NCBI GenBank assembly: GCA_028289185.1
Contig: JAQGGV010000003.1
Span: forward strand, 1 to 37,568
DNA from: Candidatus Saccharimonadota bacterium
GTDB lineage: Bacteria > Patescibacteriota > Saccharimonadia > Saccharimonadales > Saccharimonadaceae
Reading direction: 5' to 3'
DNA: 37,568 bases
Shown here: in pieces, positions 8,907-36,597 of the stretch
Layout of the letters: each line of letters begins with the position of its first letter
Position numbering within the stretch: position 1 is the stretch's first letter
The notes under the pieces: model-generated
What the model was told of the DNA's origin: nothing
Database searches by the model: none
Seen by the model: only the letters and a program-made list of their open reading frames with translations
Position numbers and translations under genes: made by a program

Positions 8907-9947
8907 TTAATACCAGGATTCGTGACGTGACCGCCACCACAAACTCTTGGCGGCTCGCTCGCCAAATTTGATCCACAGCGCGTACTGCCGTGGCCTGACG
9001 ACCAGATCGAATGCACCGACGTAATCGGTCACATGCTTGTTGAAACTGGTTTTGAATCGGCCAACGCCGTAATAGGGGTGTTGCTCGTCATTTATTTGGT
9101 CACTGGATGGGGATCCGTAGAGGTTGTGTTGCTTTGCACCGCGCTCCTTTGCCCAGGCAATGATATGCCATTGCAGCAGGTGGCTGGCGCCATAGGCGGT
9201 TCGTTCGCGCACGCTGGCACCATCTTTGTAGGTGCTTTTTTCGCCAAATACCATGGCGAACGCCGCCGCGACCAACTTGCCGTCGTAATTGGCAAAAAAC
9301 AGCTGACCCATCTCGGCACTAGCGAATGATTGCCATAGTTTTTTGAAATAGTCGTAGGGCCGGATGATAAAGGAACCGCTGGCAGTTTGCTGAAGCAGTT
9401 CATAGAACGCTTCGCAGTTTTTATCGGTTGCTTTCACTCGTTCAACTGTTACACCGTCACGTTCTGCTCTTTTGATAGCATGGCGACCCTTTTGGTTCAG
9501 CCCAGCCATAATTTCGTCGAGTTTTGGCCCTAGATCAATCAGCACGGTGGATGCGTTGGGTTGGATAGCTGCAACGTGTTTTAGCCCCAATTCGTGCAGG
9601 GCTTTCATGGCATCATCGGTCTTTTCCAGTTCGGGCTCAACTTTCACTGCAAAGACGCCGTGCTTGTCCGCAAACGACCGTAAATCAGGCAGTAAATCAC
9701 CAAGCTGGGGCACGGTTGATATGCCCGGTCCCTTGGGGATGTACCAAAAATTACCGAGTCCAGCAACGGGTTTTTCGAGGATTGTCAGTGCAACGCTACC
9801 AGCCAGTACATAGCGTGGTTTCCAATTCCCCATCTCTCGCATATGGGCGAACTGCACGCTCTGTAAAACGTCGCCACCATCGGGATTACCGAGGATTTTG
9901 GTGTTCCAATTATCTATTTCTGAACTGTCTGCGAGTCGCATCGTCAT
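8907..9947 (-). CDS. FemAB-family peptidoglycan bridge-forming transferase (second paralogue)
   Basis: MTMRLADSSEIDNWNTKILGNPDGGDVLQSVQFAHMREMGNWKPRY... resembles FemAB. Start trimmed to ATG 9947, with TACAAT (9954-9959, minus strand) 6 nt upstream. Confidence 0.75.
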   Translation of the reverse strand: MTMRLADSSEIDNWNTKILGNPDGGDVLQSVQFAHMREMGNWKPRYVLAGSVALTILEKPVAGLGNFWYIPKGPGISTVPQLGDLLPDLRSFADKHGVFAVKVEPELEKTDDAMKALHELGLKHVAAIQPNASTVLIDLGPKLDEIMAGLNQKGRHAIKRAERDGVTVERVKATDKNCEAFYELLQQTASGSFIIRPYDYFKKLWQSFASAEMGQLFFANYDGKLVAAAFAMVFGEKSTYKDGASVRERTAYGASHLLQWHIIAWAKERGAKQHNLYGSPSSDQINDEQHPYYGVGRFKTSFNKHVTDYVGAFDLVVRPRQYALWIKFGERAAKSLWWRSRHESWY

Positions 9948-9982
9948 AGAACCATTGTACCGGACCTGATATAGTCTAAGGA

Positions 9983-10417
9983 ATGGGAAATATCTTTTCG
10001 TCGACTGATATCCGCGGATACGTCGGCCAATCACTCACTACAGAATACGTTTGGAACGTCGGTAAGGCGTTCGCTGAATGGTTACCCGAAAAGGGTGCCA
10101 TTGTTGTTGTCCAGGCAGAACTTGCCGATGAGGGTACGGCGCATGCACTTACAGAGGGTATTTTGCTACAGGGTAGAAATGTCATAACGCAAAGCCATGG
10201 CGATCAACCAAAAGTCATTGCTGCAATTATGGAGAACAAGGCTGCTGGCGGTGCACTTATTGAGTACGAAAAAGTTCAAAATCTAGCCGTTATTACATTG
10301 TTTGATGAGCGCGGTGTCGCAATTATGGATAGTACTGGTCTGAGCAACATTAGTGAATTGGTTGATGCAGGGAACTTTCTACCCGCACCTGCTAAGGGTG
10401 AACTTCACGCGGCCTAA
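9983..10417 (+). CDS. Stand-alone PGM/PMM alpha-beta domain I-like protein lacking the phosphoserine loop
   Basis: MGNIFSSTDIRGYVGQSLTTEYVWNVGKAFAEWL...VVVQ resembles the N-terminus of phosphogluco/phosphomannomutases (FGTDGIRG...). Where the T/SASHNP loop is expected the sequence reads GGALIEYEKV. The protein ends after 144 aa. Confidence 0.5.
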   Translation: MGNIFSSTDIRGYVGQSLTTEYVWNVGKAFAEWLPEKGAIVVVQAELADEGTAHALTEGILLQGRNVITQSHGDQPKVIAAIMENKAAGGALIEYEKVQNLAVITLFDERGVAIMDSTGLSNISELVDAGNFLPAPAKGELHAA

Positions 10418-22687: not shown

Positions 22688-22775
22688 GGAGAGGTGTCCG
22701 AGTGGTTGAAGGAGCACGCTTGGAAAGCGTGTGTGCGGCAACGTACCGCAGGTTCGAATCCTGTTCTCTCCGCCA
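22688..22775 (+). tRNA. tRNA-Ser(GGA): tRNA-Ser (anticodon GGA), type II with a long variable arm, CCA encoded
   Basis: Manual fold. Acceptor GGAGAGG/TCTCTCC. D-arm TCC GAGTGGTTGAA GGA. Anticodon stem CACGC/GCGTG with loop TTGGAAA. Variable arm of 16 nt. T-arm GCAGG TTCGAAT CCTGT. Discriminator G, then CCA. Confidence 0.9.
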
Positions 22776-24324: not shown

Positions 24325-24413
24325 TTGCAGTCAACCTCGCAGCCTATTTTAGTGGTCTGTGGTACTCGGTACCGTCGGTGATTGTAACCGTTAAAGACGA
24401 AATAGATAGTTAG
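24321..24413 (+). CDS. Micro-ORF 2 (30 aa), hydrophobic, translationally coupled to micro-ORF 1
   Basis: Product: MIAVNLAAYFSGLWYSVPSVIVTVKDEIDS. ATGA overlap with micro-ORF 1. Its 3' end overlaps the convergent channel gene stop by 4 nt. Confidence 0.35.
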   Translation: MIAVNLAAYFSGLWYSVPSVIVTVKDEIDS

Positions 24414-24997
24414 CGCAGGGCTCGTTCGATACGTCTATCTGGCACAACCCACATAATCGCGACGAGAACAAACAGTATCTGTGAAACGACCGGCATGATA
24501 AAGGCAAAGATAATCGCCAGAATGTAAATCGCCGGCGATAGTTTGCCCTTATAATCTGCACCGACGGCACGAACGAATGGTGAGTTTTTGCCGAGTGTAG
24601 CAAAGATAGCCAGCTGCAAATTGTAGTAGGCAATTGCTGCGCCAAGGAGGACTACTCCGTAGACGGCCGTCGGAGCAAGAGCCTCGTGATTTTCACCCAT
24701 CCAGGCGGTCACAAACGGTACCAGTGTCAAAAAGAACAATAGCCCCATATTTGACCACATGATTCTGCCATTAACACCCTTGGCAGCCTGTAGCAGGTGA
24801 TGATGGTTATTCCAATAGATTGCCAGGAAGATAAAACTCAGTATATATGCAAGGAATGTTGGTACCATCGGCGCAAGGTCAGAAAAGCTGTTGCCTGTCG
24901 GTGGTCGGAACTCAATCACCATGATTGTGATAATGATTGCAATGACACCGTCGCTAAATGCCTCTAGGCGGTTGGTTTCGAATAGACCACTCTTCAT
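24410..24997 (-). CDS. TMEM175/DUF1211-family membrane protein (putative K+ channel)
   Basis: MKSGLFETNRLEAFSDGVIAIIITIMVIE carries the RxxxFSD helix-1 signature, followed by six predicted TM segments. Start set at ATG 24997 (TATAAT 6 nt upstream) rather than ORF-track 25150. Confidence 0.75.
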   Translation of the reverse strand: MKSGLFETNRLEAFSDGVIAIIITIMVIEFRPPTGNSFSDLAPMVPTFLAYILSFIFLAIYWNNHHHLLQAAKGVNGRIMWSNMGLLFFLTLVPFVTAWMGENHEALAPTAVYGVVLLGAAIAYYNLQLAIFATLGKNSPFVRAVGADYKGKLSPAIYILAIIFAFIMPVVSQILFVLVAIMWVVPDRRIERALR

Positions 24998-25161
24998 AGG
25001 GACATTATATACGACTGTGGTTTGCGACATGTGGGGCCAGGAGGCTAAAATGGACACACCACATATAGCGTAGTGTTTCTTATTTACAACGCTACGCAAG
25101 CAGTTTAAGGTGTTAATCAAGCCATAAACGGCATGTGGTGAAAAAAACACCCAAAAAGTGC

Positions 25162-25215
25162 TTGAAAACCATACATGTAGGGTCTATCATTCTACATAGA
25201 CACTACATATGTAGT
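25162..25215 (+). promoter_or_regulatory. nrd promoter with two NrdR-box-like palindromes
   Basis: TTGAAA (25162-25167), 17-nt spacer, TATCAT (25185-25190). Box 1 ACCATACATGTAGGGT (25168-25183) fills the spacer. Box 2 ACACTACATATGTAGT (25200-25215) lies downstream. Centre-to-centre distance is 32 bp. They resemble the NrdR consensus acaCwAtATaTwGtgt. Confidence 0.6.
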
Positions 25216-25377
25216 AGTTCAACAAAAACACATATTTTGCAAGACGGAGGGAAACCACCGCCAAATCGTTAGATAGGGCATCTTCTTGCATTGTCGAAAA
25301 AAGTGACCCGAGAGACCACTGGAGAACGACGGGAACGTGTTGAGAAAAAACATAAAACAGTTAACCTAAGGGGACAT

Positions 25378-27789
25378 ATGAGCATACACGTGGTAAAACG
25401 CGACGGCACCCGCGCACCATTTGACGCCAACCAGGTCAACCTCGCTTTGGTCGAAGCCAGTGAGGGGCTTCCTGACCAGATTAGCAAGGTCGTGCAAGTC
25501 GCATCTGAACTACAATTAACATTATTTGATGGCATCACAACTGAACAGTTGGACGAGGCTGTCATTCACACTGCGTTGCAGAACGTCAAAGACGATCCTG
25601 ACTTTGATACGATCGCTGCGAGGTTGCAGCTAAAGAACCTATACAAGAAGGTTCTGGGACATTACGACAACACCGCGGAGCTAAAGAAGCTGCACGCCAG
25701 CAAGTTTCCAGAGTACCTAAAGCAAGGTATTACTGACGGCCTGCTGGACAAGCGCATGACTGCCAAGACCTTTGATCTGAAGAAGCTGTCAGCAGCGCTT
25801 GACCCTAGTCGTGACGGCCTAATGCGCTACCTGGGCGTCATCACCAACCGTAACCGCTACAGTCTACGCAAAAACAGTGGTGAATCAATCGAAGTACCAC
25901 AGTTTACGGCTATGCGTATTGCTATGGGGCTGAGCCTACTCGAGAAAGATCCAACCGCAACGGCACTCGAATTCTACGAATACATTAGTAAGCTCGATGC
26001 CAACCCAGCTGGCTCGACTCGTATTAACGCTGGTGGTTCATTCCCGCAACTATCGAACTGTTTCTTGTTTGATATCGAGGATGACATGGAAGCAATTGCT
26101 CGTGCTGTACGCGACACGATGTGGATCGCAAAGGGCACCGGTGGCATAGGTATCGGTATCACCAAGCTGCGTGCTAGCGGTAGTCCAGTCCGAACGACAA
26201 ACAGTGAATCAACCGGCCCAATCCCATTCATCAAGATGCTCGATACGGCACTGTTCGCAGTCAGCCGCAAGGGCAAGAAACAGGGTGCTGCGGCCATCTT
26301 TATGGAGAACTGGCACATGAACTTCCCGCAGTTTTTGGATTTGAAGCAAAACTCGGGCGATCCATACCTCCGTACTCGTATTGCGAACACGGCGGTCATC
26401 CTAAGCGACGAATTCATGCGTCGCGTCCAGAATGAAGAGCCTTGGTACTTGTTTGATCCATCTGAAACAGCCGATTTGATCGAACTCTACGGAAGTGCAT
26501 TTGCAAAACGCTACAACGAATATGTTGAGCTAGCCGAAACAGGCAAGATGCGTGACTTTGTGAAAGTGAAGGCTCGTGAGCAATACCACCAGATTTTGAC
26601 AGTACTACAGGCGACGAGTCATCCATGGCTGACCTGGAAGGACACAATGAACGTCCGGGCGCTTAACAATAACACTGGTACGATTCACCACTCCAACCTG
26701 TGTACTGAAATCACGCTACCACAGGACAAGGACAACACTGCTGTCTGTAACCTGTCGAGCATCAATCTGTCTGTCCACCTTCGTGATGACAAGACATGGG
26801 ACTGGGATCGCCTGAAATCAGCTGTGCGTATTTCTATCCGCCAGCTGGATAACTTGGTTGATTTGACCAACACACCGATTCCACAGGCTATGCACTCTAA
26901 CATTCAGAACCGTGCAGTCGGCCTAGGTATCATGGGCTTTGCCGATGTACTGGAAAAGCTTGGCCACAGTTATGAATCAGAGGAAGCGTATGAACTCATG
27001 GACCAATTGACTGAGTTCATCAGTTATCATGCCATCGAAGCGAGCGCGGATTTGGCCAAGGAACGTGGTAGCTACCCAACATTCAAGGGCAGCGGCTGGA
27101 GCAAGGGCATATTGCCACTCGATACACTCGACCAATTGGAACTCGACCGCGGCGTCAAACTCGAAATCAGCCGCAAGGCACGTCTGGATTGGGAAAAACT
27201 ACGCGCCAAGGTGAAAAAGGGTATGCGAAACGCAACCCTGATGGCAATCGCGCCAACCGCCAACAATGCACACGTTTCCGGTACAACACCGGGCATCGAC
27301 CCACAATTTGCACAGATTTTCAGTCGTTCAACACTCAACGGTAAGTTCCTCGAGGTCAATGTGAACCTGGTTCGCGACCTGCGTGCAATCGGTCTATGGG
27401 ACGAGGTTAAAGAGGACGTTTTGCGCCTACAAGGCGACGTCCAACAGATTGCGGCCATTCCACAGCACATCAAGGATGTTTACAAGACAAGCTTCCAGCT
27501 GAGCCCCTACGCCTTTATCGAAGTCGCTGCACGGGCACAGAAGTGGGTTGATCAAGCAATCAGCCGTAACATGTATCTGGATACGCGCGACGTCAACGAA
27601 TATGAAGACATTTACATGGCTGCATGGAAGCGCGGACTGAAAACGACCTACTACCTGCACGTCAAACCTCGACATACGGCCGAACAAAGTACCGTCAAGG
27701 TTAATAAAGCTGAATCACTTTCCGGGACTGGACCACGTAAAGCAGGCTTTGGCTTCGCCAAAAAGCAGACTGTCGGGGTGGAAACCTAG
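25378..27789 (+). CDS. nrdA: Ribonucleoside-diphosphate reductase alpha subunit (class I) with an N-terminal ATP-cone
   Basis: ATP-cone MSIHVVKRDGTRAPFDANQV, LSNCFLF, SNLCTEITLP, AVCNLSSINL, TTYYLH. Start set at ATG 25378 (AAGGGG upstream) rather than TTG 25291. No Cys after the YY motif. Confidence 0.92.
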   Translation: MSIHVVKRDGTRAPFDANQVNLALVEASEGLPDQISKVVQVASELQLTLFDGITTEQLDEAVIHTALQNVKDDPDFDTIAARLQLKNLYKKVLGHYDNTAELKKLHASKFPEYLKQGITDGLLDKRMTAKTFDLKKLSAALDPSRDGLMRYLGVITNRNRYSLRKNSGESIEVPQFTAMRIAMGLSLLEKDPTATALEFYEYISKLDANPAGSTRINAGGSFPQLSNCFLFDIEDDMEAIARAVRDTMWIAKGTGGIGIGITKLRASGSPVRTTNSESTGPIPFIKMLDTALFAVSRKGKKQGAAAIFMENWHMNFPQFLDLKQNSGDPYLRTRIANTAVILSDEFMRRVQNEEPWYLFDPSETADLIELYGSAFAKRYNEYVELAETGKMRDFVKVKAREQYHQILTVLQATSHPWLTWKDTMNVRALNNNTGTIHHSNLCTEITLPQDKDNTAVCNLSSINLSVHLRDDKTWDWDRLKSAVRISIRQLDNLVDLTNTPIPQAMHSNIQNRAVGLGIMGFADVLEKLGHSYESEEAYELMDQLTEFISYHAIEASADLAKERGSYPTFKGSGWSKGILPLDTLDQLELDRGVKLEISRKARLDWEKLRAKVKKGMRNATLMAIAPTANNAHVSGTTPGIDPQFAQIFSRSTLNGKFLEVNVNLVRDLRAIGLWDEVKEDVLRLQGDVQQIAAIPQHIKDVYKTSFQLSPYAFIEVAARAQKWVDQAISRNMYLDTRDVNEYEDIYMAAWKRGLKTTYYLHVKPRHTAEQSTVKVNKAESLSGTGPRKAGFGFAKKQTVGVET

Positions 27790-27881
27790 CCTATGGGGAA
27801 ACAGTACAGATAGCACAAAAAACAGAGAGAAAAGACTAAAATTTAACGGCACCAAAAAGGGTATAAGGGGATAATTAAACT

Positions 27882-28055
27882 ATGAACGCATCAACACTCA
27901 TCAACGATCAAATGACACTGGAAGAAAAGCTCGCAGCTATCGATGCTGCTATGGCCACCGCACAGGCGACTGCTGACGACCAGGCTGCTGCCAATGGCAC
28001 CATTGCAGCACCACTTGATCCTGCTGATTTGACTATGTGCGAAGGCTGTCAGTAG
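27882..28055 (+). CDS. 57-codon ORF ending in CEGCQ, between nrdA and nrdB (not in the ORF track)
   Basis: Product: MNASTLINDQMTLEEKLAAIDAAMATAQATADDQAAANGTIAAPLDPADLTMCEGCQ. AAGGGG lies about 11 nt upstream. It fills most of the otherwise empty 321-nt nrdA-nrdB spacer (27790-28110). Confidence 0.45.
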   Translation: MNASTLINDQMTLEEKLAAIDAAMATAQATADDQAAANGTIAAPLDPADLTMCEGCQ

Positions 28056-28110: not shown

Positions 28111-29106
28111 ATGGCAGGCATTCTCGGAACCGGCATTCAAGACGGATTGCTACTTAAACCGGTACATTATAAATGGGCAATGGACTTGTACGACCAAGCG
28201 GTCGCAAACACGTGGTTTCCAAATGAAATTCAGCTAGGCCAGGACCTTAGCGACTGGAAGAAAATGAGCGATGAAGAGCGTCACGCGGTGACGTTCCTGA
28301 TGAGCTATTTCAACCCGAACGAACTACTCGTCAACAAAGCATTGGCTTTTGGCGTCTATCCGTACGTTAACGCTGCAGAGTGTCACCTGTATCTGGCAAA
28401 ACAGATGTGGGAAGAGGCAAATCACTGCATGTCGTTTGAATACGTACTCGAAACCTTTCCGATCGACCGCGAGGCATCATATGCTGCGCACGTCGACACG
28501 CCATCAATGGCGCGCAAAGAGGAATTTGAGACAAAATATATCAAGCGTATGACCGAGGAAACGCTTGATATCAAAACCACCGAGGGTAAAAAGGACTTTA
28601 TTCGTAACTTGGTTGCGTACAACATCATCCTCGAGGGTATCTGGTTCTATAGTGGATTTATGGTGGCACTTAGTTTCCGCCAACGAAATCTCCTGCGTAA
28701 CTTTGGAGCACTGATTGACTGGGTCGTCCGCGATGATTCATTGCACATAAAGATTTGCATCAATTTGATCCTGACCGTTCTGGAAGAGAACGAAGACTTG
28801 CAAACAGAAGAATTTGCCGAGGAAATCAAGCAAATGATTTTGGATGGTGTCGAGATGGAAGAGGCTTACAATAAGGACCTACTGCCAAACGGCATCCTAG
28901 GCCTCAACAGTGACTACATCAACCAGTACGTCCGTTACTTGGCTGATCGTCGTCTGGAGGAACTTGGTTTTGGTACGCACTACAATGTGTCTAACCCCGC
29001 CAAATGGATGGCAACTGCTAACGATACGCTGCAACTGGTGAACTTCTTTGAAGCGACCAACACATCATACGAAGTGAACGCAACCGGAACGAAAAAGAAA
29101 GAATAG
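28111..29106 (+). CDS. nrdB: Ribonucleotide reductase beta subunit, R2c-like (Phe at the radical-Tyr position)
   Basis: Ferritin-like motifs NELLVN, WEEANHCMSF, LEGIWFYSGF, VRDDSLH. The spacings E-31-ExxH-73-E-34-DxxH fit R2. ATG 28111 is preferred over TTG 28099. Confidence 0.88.
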   Translation: MAGILGTGIQDGLLLKPVHYKWAMDLYDQAVANTWFPNEIQLGQDLSDWKKMSDEERHAVTFLMSYFNPNELLVNKALAFGVYPYVNAAECHLYLAKQMWEEANHCMSFEYVLETFPIDREASYAAHVDTPSMARKEEFETKYIKRMTEETLDIKTTEGKKDFIRNLVAYNIILEGIWFYSGFMVALSFRQRNLLRNFGALIDWVVRDDSLHIKICINLILTVLEENEDLQTEEFAEEIKQMILDGVEMEEAYNKDLLPNGILGLNSDYINQYVRYLADRRLEELGFGTHYNVSNPAKWMATANDTLQLVNFFEATNTSYEVNATGTKKKE

Positions 29107-29113
29107 GCCCAAC

Positions 29114-29713
29114 ATGCAGACTGAAATAGAGGTCAAGTATCTTGACGTCGACTTAGCTGATATCCGAAATAGGCTACAAAAAATCGGTGCAACGTTGGAA
29201 CAGCCGATGCGGCTTCTGCGCCGATCACTGATTGAAGAGCCGCATCATAAGGCAAAGCACGGCTTCATCCGGATTCGTGATCAGGGTGATAAAGTGACGA
29301 TGGCTTACAAGCAACGTGACGATGAGTTTGCGATGCACGGGACGAAGGAAGTTGAGATAGAAGTAAGTGACTTTCAGACAACCGTTGATCTAATGGAGGC
29401 TGCGGGTTGGCCAGTGATGACATACCAGGAATCAAAGCGCGAAACATGGCGAATTGGTGAAGCCGAAGTCGTATTAGATGAATGGCCGTGGATCAAACCG
29501 TACATCGAAATTGAGGCCCCTAGCGAAGAACTGGTGAAAAAAACCGCGCAAGAACTAGGATTAAACTGGAACGACCATGTTTTGGGTAGCGTCGACGTTA
29601 TTTATGAGCGCGATTACCCGGATATGAGTGTTCGCGGGATTATAGATATCAAAGAAGCACGTTTTGCCGACCCCATTCCACCTGAGTTCCTGGGCAAAGT
29701 TAAAGAGCAATAG
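29114..29713 (+). CDS. CYTH-domain protein (CyaB/ThTPase-like triphosphate tunnel metalloenzyme)
   Basis: N-terminal EIEVKY (ExExK signature) within MQTEIEVKYLDVD. At 199 aa the size and beta-rich pattern fit CYTH. It starts 7 nt after nrdB. Confidence 0.65.
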   Translation: MQTEIEVKYLDVDLADIRNRLQKIGATLEQPMRLLRRSLIEEPHHKAKHGFIRIRDQGDKVTMAYKQRDDEFAMHGTKEVEIEVSDFQTTVDLMEAAGWPVMTYQESKRETWRIGEAEVVLDEWPWIKPYIEIEAPSEELVKKTAQELGLNWNDHVLGSVDVIYERDYPDMSVRGIIDIKEARFADPIPPEFLGKVKEQ

Positions 29714-29727
29714 ACTATACTAAATAT

Positions 29728-31032
29728 ATGAAAACAACTCTCGTTATCTTTGGCATTACCGGCGACCTGGCCCAACGCAAATTACTCCCAGCGCTTGCGA
29801 ACGTTATCGAGGCTGATCAGGCTAGCGAACTGACGATTATTGGCGTGTCCAGGCGTGCTGTTGAGCAGTATCAGGTGCTTGGCGATCATCAACAGCTATC
29901 TGGTACAACGTCTATGCTACAGATGGACTTGGATAATCCAGAGGACTATCAAAAACTGCGAACATATATCGCACAGACCGACGACGAACAAGTGCTGTTT
30001 TATCTGTCGGTACCACCAGAGTCAGCGAGTGGCATTGTCGAGAATTTGGGTAAAGCCGGCATGAACGGACAGCATAATAAACTGCTGCTTGAAAAGCCTT
30101 TTGGCCGTGATTTGGCCAGTGCTCAAGCGATGATTGATCACACTGCCGAATATTTCCATGAATCTCAGATTTATCGTATCGATCACTATTTAGCCAAGGA
30201 AATGGCGCAAAATATCGTAACATTTCGGGCGCGTAACGCCATCTTTTCGTATCTGTGGAGCAATGAATATATTGAACGAATCGAGGTGATAGCGCTGGAG
30301 TCGATTGGTATCGAGGGCCGTACTAGTTTTTATGAACAAACGGGCGCCTTGCGCGACATCGTTCAAGGGCATCTGCTGCAATTACTTGCACTAACATTGG
30401 CGCCACTGCCGGGCGAGTTGAACTGGGATAGCTTGCCGACACGTCGCATGGCTGCGCTTGATGCCATTACGACAGTCAACCCGACCAAGGCTGTTCGAGC
30501 GCAGTATGATACCTATCGCCAAGAGGTAGGAAATCCCGAAAGCTTGGTTGAGACTTTTGTATCTGTCGAACTGGAGTCGTCCGACCCGTCATGGACGGGT
30601 GTGCCATTGGCGCTGACAACAGGTAAATCGCTCGACCGCAAAAAAACCGAAGTTCGAGTTCATTTCCGCCGCATGAACGATACGCAGAGTAACTATTTGA
30701 TATTCAAGATTCAGCCCGATGAAGGTATCGCAATTGATTTGGTGACCAAAAAGCCCGGGTATGACATGGATGTCGAGCATCAGAAGTTGAGTTATATGTA
30801 CCCAGCCGACCAACGCCTGCCGGATGCTTACGAACAGGTGCTGGTGGACGCGATGAACAGCCGCAAGAGCCTGTTTGCCACTAGCGGTGAAGTTCTGCGC
30901 GCTTGGGAGATCCTGGCACCTTTGCAGCAAGCGTGGAGCAGTAAGACAGATATTGCGACGTACACGAGTGGTATGAATGCTGCCGCAGTCATTTCCGAGG
31001 CGACTCAGTCAAATCAACAACAGACGACGTAA
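29728..31032 (+). CDS. zwf: Glucose-6-phosphate 1-dehydrogenase
   Basis: LVIFGITGDLAQRKLLPAL (NADP-binding site), EKPFGRDL, and YRIDHYLAKE (RIDHYLGKE active-site signature). Confidence 0.9.
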   Translation: MKTTLVIFGITGDLAQRKLLPALANVIEADQASELTIIGVSRRAVEQYQVLGDHQQLSGTTSMLQMDLDNPEDYQKLRTYIAQTDDEQVLFYLSVPPESASGIVENLGKAGMNGQHNKLLLEKPFGRDLASAQAMIDHTAEYFHESQIYRIDHYLAKEMAQNIVTFRARNAIFSYLWSNEYIERIEVIALESIGIEGRTSFYEQTGALRDIVQGHLLQLLALTLAPLPGELNWDSLPTRRMAALDAITTVNPTKAVRAQYDTYRQEVGNPESLVETFVSVELESSDPSWTGVPLALTTGKSLDRKKTEVRVHFRRMNDTQSNYLIFKIQPDEGIAIDLVTKKPGYDMDVEHQKLSYMYPADQRLPDAYEQVLVDAMNSRKSLFATSGEVLRAWEILAPLQQAWSSKTDIATYTSGMNAAAVISEATQSNQQQTT

Positions 31033-31074
31033 ACTCTAGCATTAACGGTAGTGGTGGTGCTACAATGAAGTCCC

Positions 31075-32688
31075 ATGGGAGAGACGTCAACTATGGATTC
31101 TGAGAAGAAATCGAAACAGAAATTTATTTTCGTTACCGGAGGAGTCCTATCAGGGGTAGGTAAAGGTATCAGTGCAGCTAGTATTGGTGCAGTCCTGCAG
31201 GCCAAAGGTGTAAACGTCTCAATTCAAAAATGTGACCCGTATCTGAATGTGGATGCGGGTCTTTTGAACCCCGCCGAACACGGCGAGTGTTTCGTGACAA
31301 TTGATGGTGCCGAAACGGACTTGGACCTTGGTCACTACGAGCGTTTTTTGGATTTGGAACTCACACAGAAAAACGCGACGTTATCAGGCCGTCTGTTGTC
31401 ACAATTGATTATGGACGAACGTGCAGGTAAGTTTGGTGGCAAAACCGTCCAATTGGTGCCACACCTGACAGGAGCTATCCAGGACGCTATCCAGCTGGCT
31501 GCTGATGGAAGTGATGTACATATCGTCGAAATCGGTGGTACGGTCGGTGACTATGAGGGCCTGAGCTTTGTAGAGGCGATTCGTGAATTTGCGGCACGTG
31601 TTGGTCGCGAGAATTGTCTGTATGTGCACGTTGTGTATGTGCCGTTTATCGGGACTAGCAAGGAATTCAAGACAAAACCGGCGCAAAACGCGCTCAATGA
31701 CCTGCGCGGATTTGGTATTGTGCCTGACTGCGTGATTGTGCGTACCGATGACCCTGCGCCAGAGAACGTTGCTGGCAAAATTAGCCAATTTAGTGGTGTA
31801 CGTGAGGACGCGGTTATCTTGCTGTCGAATGCCAAGACCGTGTTTAAGGTGCCGCAACTTATCGCCGCCAGTGGCATCAATGATGTCCTGACCAGGTTTA
31901 CCGGCAACGACAACGTGCCCGACCTCAGTAAGTGGGACAAAATTATCGAGGCGCAGGCAAAGCAGTATGATAAAACAGTTACCGTCGGCTTGGTCGCCAA
32001 ATACATGGACAACGAGGACACGTATATATCTGTTCTCGAGGCGCTCAAAGCGGCTGCTTGGCAAGAGGACGTTGGCCTCGATATCAAATGGATTAACGCT
32101 GAAACTGCAGCCGATGAGGATTTTAACTCTGTCGATGGACTCGTCGTTCCTGGGGGATTTGGTGAACGCGGTGTACCTGGCAAAATTAATGCTGCGATGT
32201 ATGCACTTGATCACAAAAAGCCGTACCTTGGTCTCTGTTTGGGGCTACAGGTTGCGGTTGTTGCGGCAGCTCGTCGAAGTGGCCTCGCAGACGCCAATAG
32301 CACCGAATTTGACGCTAACACGCCCAACAATGTCGTCTATATCATGGAGGGTCAGCAAGGCAAGGAATCAACTGGTGGCACGCTGCGTCTGGGTAACTAC
32401 GACGCCAAGCTCTATGACGGCACCAAAGTTGCCGAGGCTTACGGGGTAACTGATGTTGTTGAGCGCCACCGTCACCGCTATGAGGTGAACCAATCGTTTA
32501 CAGAAGCCATTAATAACGGTGGACTGCAGATTAGCGGTACATCCCCGGATGGTAAATTGGTTGAATTCGTCGAAGCATCGGATCACCCCTACATGGTCGC
32601 TACGCAGGCTCACCCAGAACTCAAATCTCGTCCAAATCGCCCACACCCTCTGTTCGTCGGTTTGATTCGCGCAGCCAAGCAGGTATAA
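31075..32688 (+). CDS. pyrG: CTP synthase
   Basis: KFIFVTGGVLSGVGKGI, DPYLNVDAG, GATase GLCLGLQ, HRHRYEVN. An alternative ATG lies at 31093. Confidence 0.95.
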   Translation: MGETSTMDSEKKSKQKFIFVTGGVLSGVGKGISAASIGAVLQAKGVNVSIQKCDPYLNVDAGLLNPAEHGECFVTIDGAETDLDLGHYERFLDLELTQKNATLSGRLLSQLIMDERAGKFGGKTVQLVPHLTGAIQDAIQLAADGSDVHIVEIGGTVGDYEGLSFVEAIREFAARVGRENCLYVHVVYVPFIGTSKEFKTKPAQNALNDLRGFGIVPDCVIVRTDDPAPENVAGKISQFSGVREDAVILLSNAKTVFKVPQLIAASGINDVLTRFTGNDNVPDLSKWDKIIEAQAKQYDKTVTVGLVAKYMDNEDTYISVLEALKAAAWQEDVGLDIKWINAETAADEDFNSVDGLVVPGGFGERGVPGKINAAMYALDHKKPYLGLCLGLQVAVVAAARRSGLADANSTEFDANTPNNVVYIMEGQQGKESTGGTLRLGNYDAKLYDGTKVAEAYGVTDVVERHRHRYEVNQSFTEAINNGGLQISGTSPDGKLVEFVEASDHPYMVATQAHPELKSRPNRPHPLFVGLIRAAKQV

Positions 32689-36201: not shown

Positions 36202-36597
36202 ATGAAGATTGATAAAACCGAGAGCGAGTGGGAAGACGAACTAACGCCCGAGCAATACCATGTGCTGCGCGAAAAGGGTACAGAGCCGGCGTTTACGGGC
36301 GAATATGATAGTTTTTATGAACCAGGATCGTACAGCTGCGGTGCCTGCGGAACAAAATTATTCAATAGTGATACAAAATTCAACTCACATTCCGGGTGGC
36401 CGAGTTTTTATGATGCCATTCCTGGTACCGTCGTCCTTACGTCAGACGATAGCGGCGGCATGGTCCGCACGGAAGTGACTTGTGCGACTTGCGGTAGTCA
36501 CCTCGGTCATGTTTTTGAAGGCGAAGGCCTCGGTAACCCAACCGACCAGCGCTACTGTATTAACTCGTTGAGTCTCAAATTTGACCCGAGCAAATAA
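36202..36597 (+). CDS. msrB: Peptide-methionine (R)-S-oxide reductase
   Basis: SelR motifs: CGACGTKLF, GWPSF, CATCGSHLGHVF, RYCINS. Confidence 0.93.
   Translation: MKIDKTESEWEDELTPEQYHVLREKGTEPAFTGEYDSFYEPGSYSCGACGTKLFNSDTKFNSHSGWPSFYDAIPGTVVLTSDDSGGMVRTEVTCATCGSHLGHVFEGEGLGNPTDQRYCINSLSLKFDPSK

Follow-up and report, generated by a model that had tools for sequence, protein, structure and literature searches.

A 57-residue protein encoded between nrdA and nrdB as a probable detached redox tail of a class I ribonucleotide reductase in Saccharibacteria

How does a class I ribonucleotide reductase (RNR) regain its reduced state after each turnover when its catalytic subunit lacks the cysteines that normally carry the electrons? 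The question is raised by a 37,568-nucleotide stretch of DNA from a Candidatus Saccharimonadota bacterium (positions 1 to 37,568 of contig JAQGGV010000003.1, assembly GCA_028289185.1; herein the window), in which nrdA, encoding the catalytic subunit, is followed by a 57-codon open reading frame (ORF) and then by nrdB, encoding the radical-generating subunit. RNR is the source of all deoxynucleoside triphosphates (dNTPs), and the way in which it is re-reduced is generally taken not to vary: C-terminal Cys pairs of class I large subunits (R1) deliver electrons to the active site. All class I RNRs have been stated to carry such a pair in NrdA (PMC6187632), and tris(2-carboxyethyl)phosphine acts via the C-terminal cysteines of RNR (PMC4078304). 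An earlier note on this DNA suggested that the ORF is a detached R1 tail. We find that reading favored by the Cys-free C termini of NrdA, by the motif that the peptide has in common with tails encoded in cis, by operon linkage and by purifying selection; on sequence evidence, the 57-residue protein is likely to be what was once the C-terminal redox tail of the large subunit of this class I RNR, now encoded by a separate gene after an old fission.

The window NrdA consists of one ATP-cone, an all-α domain and a barrel (Pfam PF03477, PF00317 and PF02867) and scores 1300 bits against NCBIfam NF005101, for which the cut-off is 988; the closest solved structure is that of Pseudomonas aeruginosa NrdA (5im3). 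Alignment shows that residues C225, N437, C439, E441, C462, Y730 and Y731 of Escherichia coli NrdA are all kept, as C228, N440, C442, E444, C457, Y758 and Y759 (numbered from ATG 25378). The ten-stranded barrel, the catalytic Cys trio, the N437/E441 positions and the Y730/Y731 dyad place the protein among the class I RNR catalytic subunits, and the hallmarks on which the earlier note relied are thus borne out by domain matches and residue mapping alike. The C-terminal Cys pair expected of a class I NrdA is missing; the 44 residues past the YY dyad (43 by the count of the note, which had remarked on this) contain no cysteine, and the whole protein has just three (C228, C442 and C457), all of them catalytic. 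The same holds for related loci, where Cys occurs in 0 of 75 scorable NrdA tails. With only catalytic cysteines in NrdA and none in the tails, the active-site disulfide should therefore still form, while the subunit has no shuttle dithiol of its own. The gene ends at a TAG (27787-27789). Read mechanically, its ORF begins at TTG 25291; the stretch 25291-25377 would add a basic extension of 29 residues, which is probably not translated, because family models align only from ATG 25378 (residue 30).

The product of the small ORF is MNASTLINDQMTLEEKLAAIDAAMATAQATADDQAAANGTIAAPLDPADLTMCEGCQ, ending in MCEGCQ. Its start lies 92 nt past the nrdA stop in a different frame, with seven stops ahead of it in its own frame and more in that of nrdA; because stops occur in both frames, no single indel could join the two genes. 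The ORF, its gap, its frame and the intervening stops are all as first described. No terminator-like site is present on the + strand between nrdA and nrdB. The peptide comprises an N-terminal amphipathic helix, whose hydrophobic face is formed by L13, L17, I20 and M24 and which may serve docking or dimerization, and a C-terminal tail module with the two cysteines (Cys53, codon 28038-28040; Cys56, codon 28047-28049). Neither Pfam, NCBIfam nor PHROG has a family for it, and it does not belong to the thioredoxin-fold redoxins (thioredoxin [Trx], glutaredoxin [Grx] or NrdH), in which the CxxC is internal, at the N terminus of a helix; that of the peptide sits at the extreme C terminus. The features of the locus are collected in Table 1.

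Table 1. Features of the nrdA-nrdB locus, in window coordinates
Feature	Position	Strand	Remarks
Sigma-70-like promoter candidate, TTGAAA-17-TATCAT, 5' of nrdA	25162..25190	+	Consensus scan only
nrdA, class I RNR catalytic subunit	25378..27789	+	803 residues; ATG 25378; NF005101/PRK06539 type
Cys-free C-terminal tail of NrdA (LHVKPRHTAEQSTVKVNKAESLSGTGPRKAGFGFAKKQTVGVET)	27655..27786	+	44 residues past YY, no Cys
Shine-Dalgarno-like AAGGGG	27865..27870	+	11 nt ahead of the peptide ATG; read from sequence
Free-standing gene for the probable redox-tail protein, 57 residues	27882..28055	+	Homologs, species genomes, dN/dS
Predicted N-terminal amphipathic helix, residues 11-28 (MTLEEKLAAIDAAMATAQ)	27912..27965	+	Conservation; predicted helix
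Tail module, residues 43-57 (AAPLDPADLTMCEGCQ-COOH)	28008..28052	+	Homologous, by motif and profile, to contiguous NrdA redox tails
nrdB, class Ic-type radical-generating subunit	28111..29106	+	Likely start ATG 28111; alignment to C. trachomatis 1syy

The peptide belongs to a large and strongly constrained family. Database proteins matching the ORF number 1618 at E ≤ 0.01, far beyond chance, and by this count the ORF is a real gene. The best 120 of the 1618 are 57-59 residues long, with one of 78, and every match among them that has a source name is a hypothetical protein from Saccharibacteria/Saccharimonadales or from unclassified Patescibacteria metagenome-assembled genomes (MAGs). A profile search of 1.84 billion representatives, at 50% clustering, gave 133 family representatives at E ≤ 1e-3. 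In all 100 complete representatives the tail motif [AV]P[VIL]DPx[DE][LA]xxC[ED][GS]C[QE]-COOH is kept (both Cys in 100%, D in 98% and P in 96%), and the last ~15 residues of the window peptide accordingly read PxDPxDLxxCEGCQ-COOH; the N-terminal segment M[TS]L[ED]EKLxAI[DE] is conserved as well, and L17 and I20 never vary. In a set of 67 distinct coding sequences, the proportion of nonsynonymous differences (pN) is lowest in the tail (0.11), intermediate in the helix (0.20) and highest in the linker (0.39); the synonymous counterpart (pS) is 0.73 (saturated), and the overall ratio of nonsynonymous to synonymous substitution (dN/dS) is ~0.09. These values indicate that the peptide gene is under strong purifying selection. 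Covariation of NrdA columns with the Q/E terminus of the peptide tracked phylogeny only, and a sequence profile search of the PDB gave weak coiled-coil-like matches to the helix and no NrdA tail.

Peptide relatives were found in 311 species-level genomes (one genome per species), and gene orders and tails were scored in the best 80 of these, all of them Saccharibacteria or unclassified Patescibacteria MAGs. The order nrdA-nrdB-pep, where pep denotes the peptide gene, is present at 47 loci and that of the window, nrdA-pep-nrdB, at 31, with two of each truncated by a contig end; at the remaining 2 loci, on a short contig and in a prophage-like region, the peptide gene stands alone. One divergent peptide subfamily has the order nrdA-85aa-nrdB-(NTPase)-PNPOx-pep-Zip and a second has nrdA-pep-nrdB; the NrdAs that accompany the two belong to the same clade (68-72% identity). 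The peptide gene occupies three different positions within the nrd operon. Whether the Cys-free C terminus of NrdA co-occurs with the small ORF, and whether the ORF evolves under purifying selection, were questions posed by the earlier note; both are answered in the affirmative, the first at 75 of 75 scorable loci.

Some of these operons have further features of their own. Many nrdA-nrdB-pep loci have a PNPOx-like gene (flavin mononucleotide-binding split-barrel, PF01243) between nrdB and the peptide gene, for example L013:5543-5941 and L087:7462-7878. A conserved, charged, helical ORF of 84-85 residues, without a family, lies between nrdA and nrdB at L087:5182-5439 and L090:2489-2743, and the tail peptide of this subgroup keeps a third Cys. 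At L074:5997-6174 the peptide gene is in the frame of nrdA, separated from it by one stop and five codons (...GFGFAK-stop-KGKGITMNASS...); the arrangement is probably a coincidence, but is a candidate for read-through.

Is the end of the peptide related to the tails that other NrdA proteins carry in cis? Contiguous NrdAz-type relatives at 40-43% identity (P. aeruginosa, Phyllobacterium, Legionella, Methylocella and Halogeometricum were compared) end in ...C[SA]IxDPxC[ED]ACQ, with termini such as ...CSIDNPDCEACQ or ...CSIEAMKNGGTCESCQ. A survey of viral NrdA homologs, covering the best 80 of at least 568 matches, gave 75 that end in CxxC among 79 complete proteins, most of them as ...ACSIEAMKNGGTCESCQ or ...CSIDNPDCE[AS]CQ. 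Closer relatives came from a metagenome scan seeded with NF005101-type NrdA, which yielded 67 loci that include the whole 3' end of nrdA. Thirty-two are fused loci of the NF005101 type, with a contiguous NrdA 51-63% identical to that of the window; here the proximal motif LHMKPRHTAEQST..VNK..GK.GFG is followed by a long low-complexity linker and a terminus of the form ...CPVDPAERAQCDSCQ, ...GPEDPADRFICDGCA or ...SEDPQDALLCEGCQ. Five fused loci of the NrdAz outgroup had been overlooked by the pattern search, 23 loci have a split tail, 2 are cut by a contig end and uninformative, and 6 have a Cys-free NrdA with no tail gene found within ~5 kb.

Among 35 fused tails, 32 are matched at their extreme C terminus, with scores of 13-26 bits, by a hidden Markov model (HMM) built from the free peptides alone, and the matches are always anchored, last profile position to last residue. 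When the last 28 residues of the peptide are grafted onto NrdA, the alignment to the Pseudomonas-type model NF005544 reaches position 965 of 965 and gains 6.2 bits, compared with 1.4 bits for a scrambled tail and 25.9 for the genuine P. aeruginosa tail; the same chimera is uninformative against NF005101 (+4.0 bits vs. +2.8 for the scrambled tail). Some free peptides (P0208 type, ...FACPIDPAERALCEACQ) also retain the third, upstream Cys of cis tails. With a Cys pair next to the free C terminus (CEGCQ-COOH) that aligns with the tails of related NrdAs, the tail of the peptide is, by motif and profile comparison, a homolog of the R1 redox tail; the identity of the two terminal motifs argues that the split arose by gene fission. 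The earlier note had reasoned that contiguous NrdAs containing this CxxC segment would expose a frameshift or assembly artifact. Such proteins do exist, in other lineages and at the 51-63% identity given above, and what they reveal is an old gene fission in place of an artifact.

The GFG motif in the tail of NrdA is no adaptation to the split. The proximal motif KPRH.AEQST..VNK and the GFG are common to fused and split members of the family; the idea that GFGFAKK of NrdA is a docking site evolved for a peptide acting in trans was rejected, as the fused members carry the same GFG, which is therefore ancestral.

These comparisons suggest how the two-piece enzyme would work. Each turnover of NrdA, in which C442 would provide the thiyl radical, would oxidize the active-site pair C228/C457 to a disulfide; as NrdA has no further thiols, an external dithiol would have to reduce that disulfide each time. 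The terminal dithiol of the peptide, C53-E-G-C56-Q-COOH, would enter the active site and reduce the disulfide in trans by thiol-disulfide exchange. A redoxin of the thioredoxin or glutaredoxin type, drawing on reduced nicotinamide adenine dinucleotide phosphate (NADPH), would then restore the peptide dithiol. What sequence and comparison show is the Cys-free NrdA, the homology of the peptide end to cis tails, the kept operon linkage, the purifying selection and the phage copies beside redoxin genes; these copies and the redoxin-tail fusions of phages are indirect evidence for the redox step, and the disulfide exchange itself is inferred. Either type of redoxin could serve, and the helix may dock the peptide on NrdA or the peptide may diffuse freely.

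Detached tails are not confined to the helix-tail peptides. Twenty of the 23 split loci come from a lineage of high GC content (63-71%); the contig of one of these, L301, measures 3.7 Mb. In this lineage the NrdA proteins end in ...GFGFGGAK, ...GFGGLTS or similar, and a micro-ORF of 21-35 residues, such as MNEEYYVPVDPMDELQCDSCQ or MGPDDYYVPVDPMDELQCDSCQ, lies between nrdA and nrdB; its start overlaps the nrdA stop in 17 of the 20 loci and is within ~10 nt of it in the other 3. These micro-ORFs (examples among L299-L366 are L300:7457-7522, L301:7469-7549 and L306:5690-5755) are shorter than usual gene-calling limits and so are probably unannotated. They lack the N-terminal helix, which is therefore likely to be accessory (docking, dimerization or stability) and to stand outside the chemistry.

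A third arrangement is found on IMGVR_UViG_3300010885_033832 (L152, L217) and a near-identical metagenome contig (L297), where an intein-bearing, Cys-free NrdA is preceded by its candidate tail gene. The nrdA of L152 (3001-6363) is of the NF005101 type, contains a LAGLIDADG intein and ends in ...GFGFKSAN; upstream of it, a small ORF (L152:2712-2912) with AAGGAG ahead of it ends in VPQDPMDLLQCDSCQ. A WhiB-like ORF near this tail peptide suggests that the contig is of actinobacterial or actinophage origin. In two phage lineages, finally, NrdA stops soon past YY without Cys, and the next gene, between nrdA and nrdB, joins a redoxin domain to a tail: a glutaredoxin domain (PF00462) with ...ATCESCEG in L172:5354-5647 (the same gene is in L173), and a thioredoxin domain (PF00085) with ...IACEACQ in L182:5199-5558. 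Scans for relatives of these Grx-tail and Trx-tail fusions led back to these contigs alone, and to our knowledge a redoxin domain followed by an R1-type tail has no prior description. The detached tails together argue that the tail is a portable module, in some cases physically linked to redoxins.

Intact genes for the helix-tail peptide are also carried by phages. They are present on 37 IMG/VR contigs (L092-L128) and on the prophage-like L038 (L038:3108-3287, with a terminase at L038:5855-7123), and neither nrdA nor nrdB was found within 8 kb of any of them. The phage contigs encode terminase, amidase/endolysin, Erf, exonuclease, a DNA-polymerase exonuclease subunit, RNA ligase, NinG and PNKP, and the peptide gene stands among early and DNA-metabolism genes. 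On 7 of the 37, a glutaredoxin-like gene (YruB/NrdH-like, under family cut-offs) lies 3' of the peptide gene, one ORF downstream in L108, L109, L111 and L112 and abutting it in L113, L114 and L116; a direct reading of L113 shows that the redoxin gene starts at a GTG which overlaps the stop codon of the peptide. A Saccharibacteria-type NrdA was found neither by a single-protein scan of viral contigs nor within the 8-kb flanks of the peptide genes, and the alignment-based viral scan (again the best 80 of at least 568 matches) gave only NrdAs of at most ~40% identity and the intein-bearing L152, none of them located on a contig with the peptide gene.

From this distribution we put forward a wider proposal, tentatively and with distinctly less confidence than the assignment of the window peptide. 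The covalent tether may be dispensable and the tail a diffusible micro-redox carrier. Four or more separate detachments from class I NrdA may have taken place, giving the helix-tail peptide of Saccharibacteria, the high-GC micro-ORFs, the version upstream of nrdA and the phage Grx-/Trx-tail fusions. In phages that presumably infect Saccharibacteria, the peptide gene, in some cases with translational coupling to a gene for a glutaredoxin-like protein, would be an auxiliary gene by which the turnover of the host RNR is raised during infection.

The peptide could instead serve the metal chemistry of its neighbor. The window NrdB, whose ORF begins mechanically at TTG 28099, is closest to R2c of Chlamydia trachomatis; it has Phe at the equivalent of Tyr122, the radical Tyr, and its first metal ligand is Glu, not Asp (EEANHCMSF vs. 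EEAVHTHTF and NPNELLV vs. STAESLV in the alignment to 1syy), and is therefore class Ic-like. Class Ic R2 proteins of the C. trachomatis type have a Mn(IV)/Fe(III) cofactor, and a helper that binds or delivers metal for it through its CxxC, possibly as a pair within a dimer, would explain why the peptide gene adjoins a class Ic-type nrdB and why metal-transport genes stand near some operons (Zip beside the peptide gene in L087/L090, Nramp after nrdB in L131); the helix is, moreover, weakly, though not significantly, like coiled-coil sequences. We consider this quite improbable. The motif is that of the cis tail of NrdA, which is known to serve disulfide exchange, and the peptide is present exactly where NrdA has lost its own Cys pair; the phage contigs have no nrdB within 8 kb, with a glutaredoxin-like gene downstream in seven, and two thiolates are, as a matter of general chemistry, poor Mn(II) ligands. 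Just as improbable is an Sml1-like regulator that occupies the tail-binding site or active-site entrance of NrdA and tunes its activity. A small, partly helical and largely unstructured protein encoded with RNR would suit that role, and phages with the peptide could use it to manipulate the dNTP supply of the host; yet both cysteines are invariant at exactly the C-terminal spacing of functional cis tails, the 21-35-residue versions consist of the tail alone, and NrdA would be left without any shuttle dithiol.

That the ORF is the precursor of a ribosomally synthesized and post-translationally modified peptide (RiPP), or an unrelated small redox peptide that is in the nrd operon by chance, is less probable still. 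Conservation at the N terminus, variability in the middle and cysteines at the C terminus are reminiscent of such precursors, and the lack of a Pfam, NCBIfam or PHROG family leaves room for the idea, but no maturation enzyme, protease or exporter is among the conserved neighbors (nrdA, nrdB, the PNPOx-like gene, CYTH, glucose-6-phosphate dehydrogenase and transporters); unlike RiPP cores, the C terminus is the most conserved segment, and it is homologous to NrdA cis tails. Least probable of all, to the point of being negligible, is a non-functional split, whether an assembly or sequencing frameshift, a pseudogenized tail, or recoding or read-through that restores a contiguous NrdA. Contiguous homologs in other lineages, the in-frame peptide of L074 with its one stop and the overlap of the high-GC micro-ORF start with the nrdA stop can be cited for it. 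Set against these are the 92 nt, the frame change and the multiple stops in both frames of the window; a Shine-Dalgarno sequence and ATG of the peptide's own; a gene that lies 3' of nrdB in 47 of the 80 species genomes, beyond further genes in others, and upstream of nrdA on IMGVR_UViG_3300010885_033832 and the near-identical metagenome contig; a dN/dS of 0.09; and stand-alone copies on 37 phage contigs. Shifting position, independent translation signals and conservation together rule out an assembly or frameshift artifact. The frameshift, the unrelated small peptide and the RiPP, which the earlier note had itself listed as alternatives, find no support.

Several results do weigh against a detached redox tail. 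Six loci of the metagenome scan (L320, L322, L332, L334, L361 and L371) have a Cys-free NrdA and no recognizable tail gene within ~5 kb, so that either the gene is unlinked there or these enzymes are re-reduced in some other way. The helix part of the free-peptide HMM has no detectable counterpart in the fused tails, and the profile search of 1.84 billion representatives reached no NrdA at E ≤ 1e-3, a threshold that so short a tail match does not attain. An AlphaFold2 model of the peptide has helices at 13-37 and 47-54, no compact fold and low confidence (mean predicted local distance difference test score 60.6); it agrees with a flexible tail able to reach the active site but is no proof of one. 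No thioredoxin or glutaredoxin gene was found in the window. We nonetheless regard a separately encoded redox tail as the likely function of the peptide.

How does such a tail compare with known systems? Like the R1 tail in cis, the peptide has a CxxC one residue from the C terminus, a DP upstream and a presumed role as shuttle from redoxin to active site; it differs in being a polypeptide in its own right, whose gene has a start codon and a ribosome-binding site to itself and may lie before or after nrdB or several genes off, and in its conserved N-terminal amphipathic helix, which cis tails lack. The nearest parallel is NrdJa/NrdJb of P. aeruginosa, a split class II enzyme in which a catalytic subunit and a Cys-bearing C-terminal module are likewise encoded by two adjacent genes, and in which NrdJb has thiol-disulfide exchange as its main role and is required in vivo (PMC4520616; PMC5704485). 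That enzyme is B12-dependent, and NrdJb is a folded, zinc-binding protein with six Cys; the window system is class I(c), and its peptide, of 57 residues (elsewhere 21-35), is mostly unstructured and has two Cys only, with a class I NrdA/NrdB partner, so that it would act like NrdJb without belonging to the NrdJb/cysteine-rich domain family. Fusions of redoxins with RNR subunits, such as Grx::NrdB in Facklamia ignava and Francisella and Grx fusions in phages, show a comparably modular electron-delivery chain, with parts that are joined and split anew within nrd operons (PMC6187632); there a redoxin is joined to NrdB or NrdA, whereas here the tail has left NrdA and, in L172/L173 and L182, joins a redoxin. 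NrdH-redoxin of class Ib operons is also a small CxxC protein of an RNR operon dedicated to re-reduction of the enzyme, but its fold is that of thioredoxin/glutaredoxin and its target is the NrdE tail; the peptide, which has no redoxin fold, is the counterpart of the tail, which such a redoxin takes as its substrate. In the literature searched, we found no report of a class I RNR with a separately encoded tail, and no paper that names ribonucleotide reductase, nrdA and Saccharibacteria together.

The remainder of the window provides the genomic setting. The promoter candidate ahead of nrdA is a weak part of the picture, because its pattern is no commoner than in shuffled sequence. Just 5' of nrdA, on the opposite strand, lies a TMEM175-like K+ channel gene (24410-25150). 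On the other side, 3' of nrdB and in the same direction, 29114-32688 holds a CYTH-domain gene and the genes for glucose-6-phosphate dehydrogenase (an NADPH source) and CTP synthase, which may form a nucleotide and reducing-power cluster; at L131 CYTH is likewise 3' of the RNR genes, with an Nramp gene between nrdB and CYTH. Farther off are two FemAB-family genes (1364-2440 and 8907-10034), one tRNA (22688-22772) and an MsrB (SelR) gene (36202-36597).

A separate tail in a class I enzyme would contradict the textbook statement that the tail is universally borne by NrdA; the redox element would be a separate micro-protein across one clade and at least one further lineage. Such a natural two-piece RNR would make tethering, tail length and tail recognition directly testable. 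The phage copies suggest a new kind of phage auxiliary gene, and ORFs of 21-35 residues that gene callers miss have been brought to light. For annotation, the caution is that a Cys-free NrdA tail need not mean truncation. For Saccharibacteria, a conserved "hypothetical protein" is likely to be an essential component of RNR.

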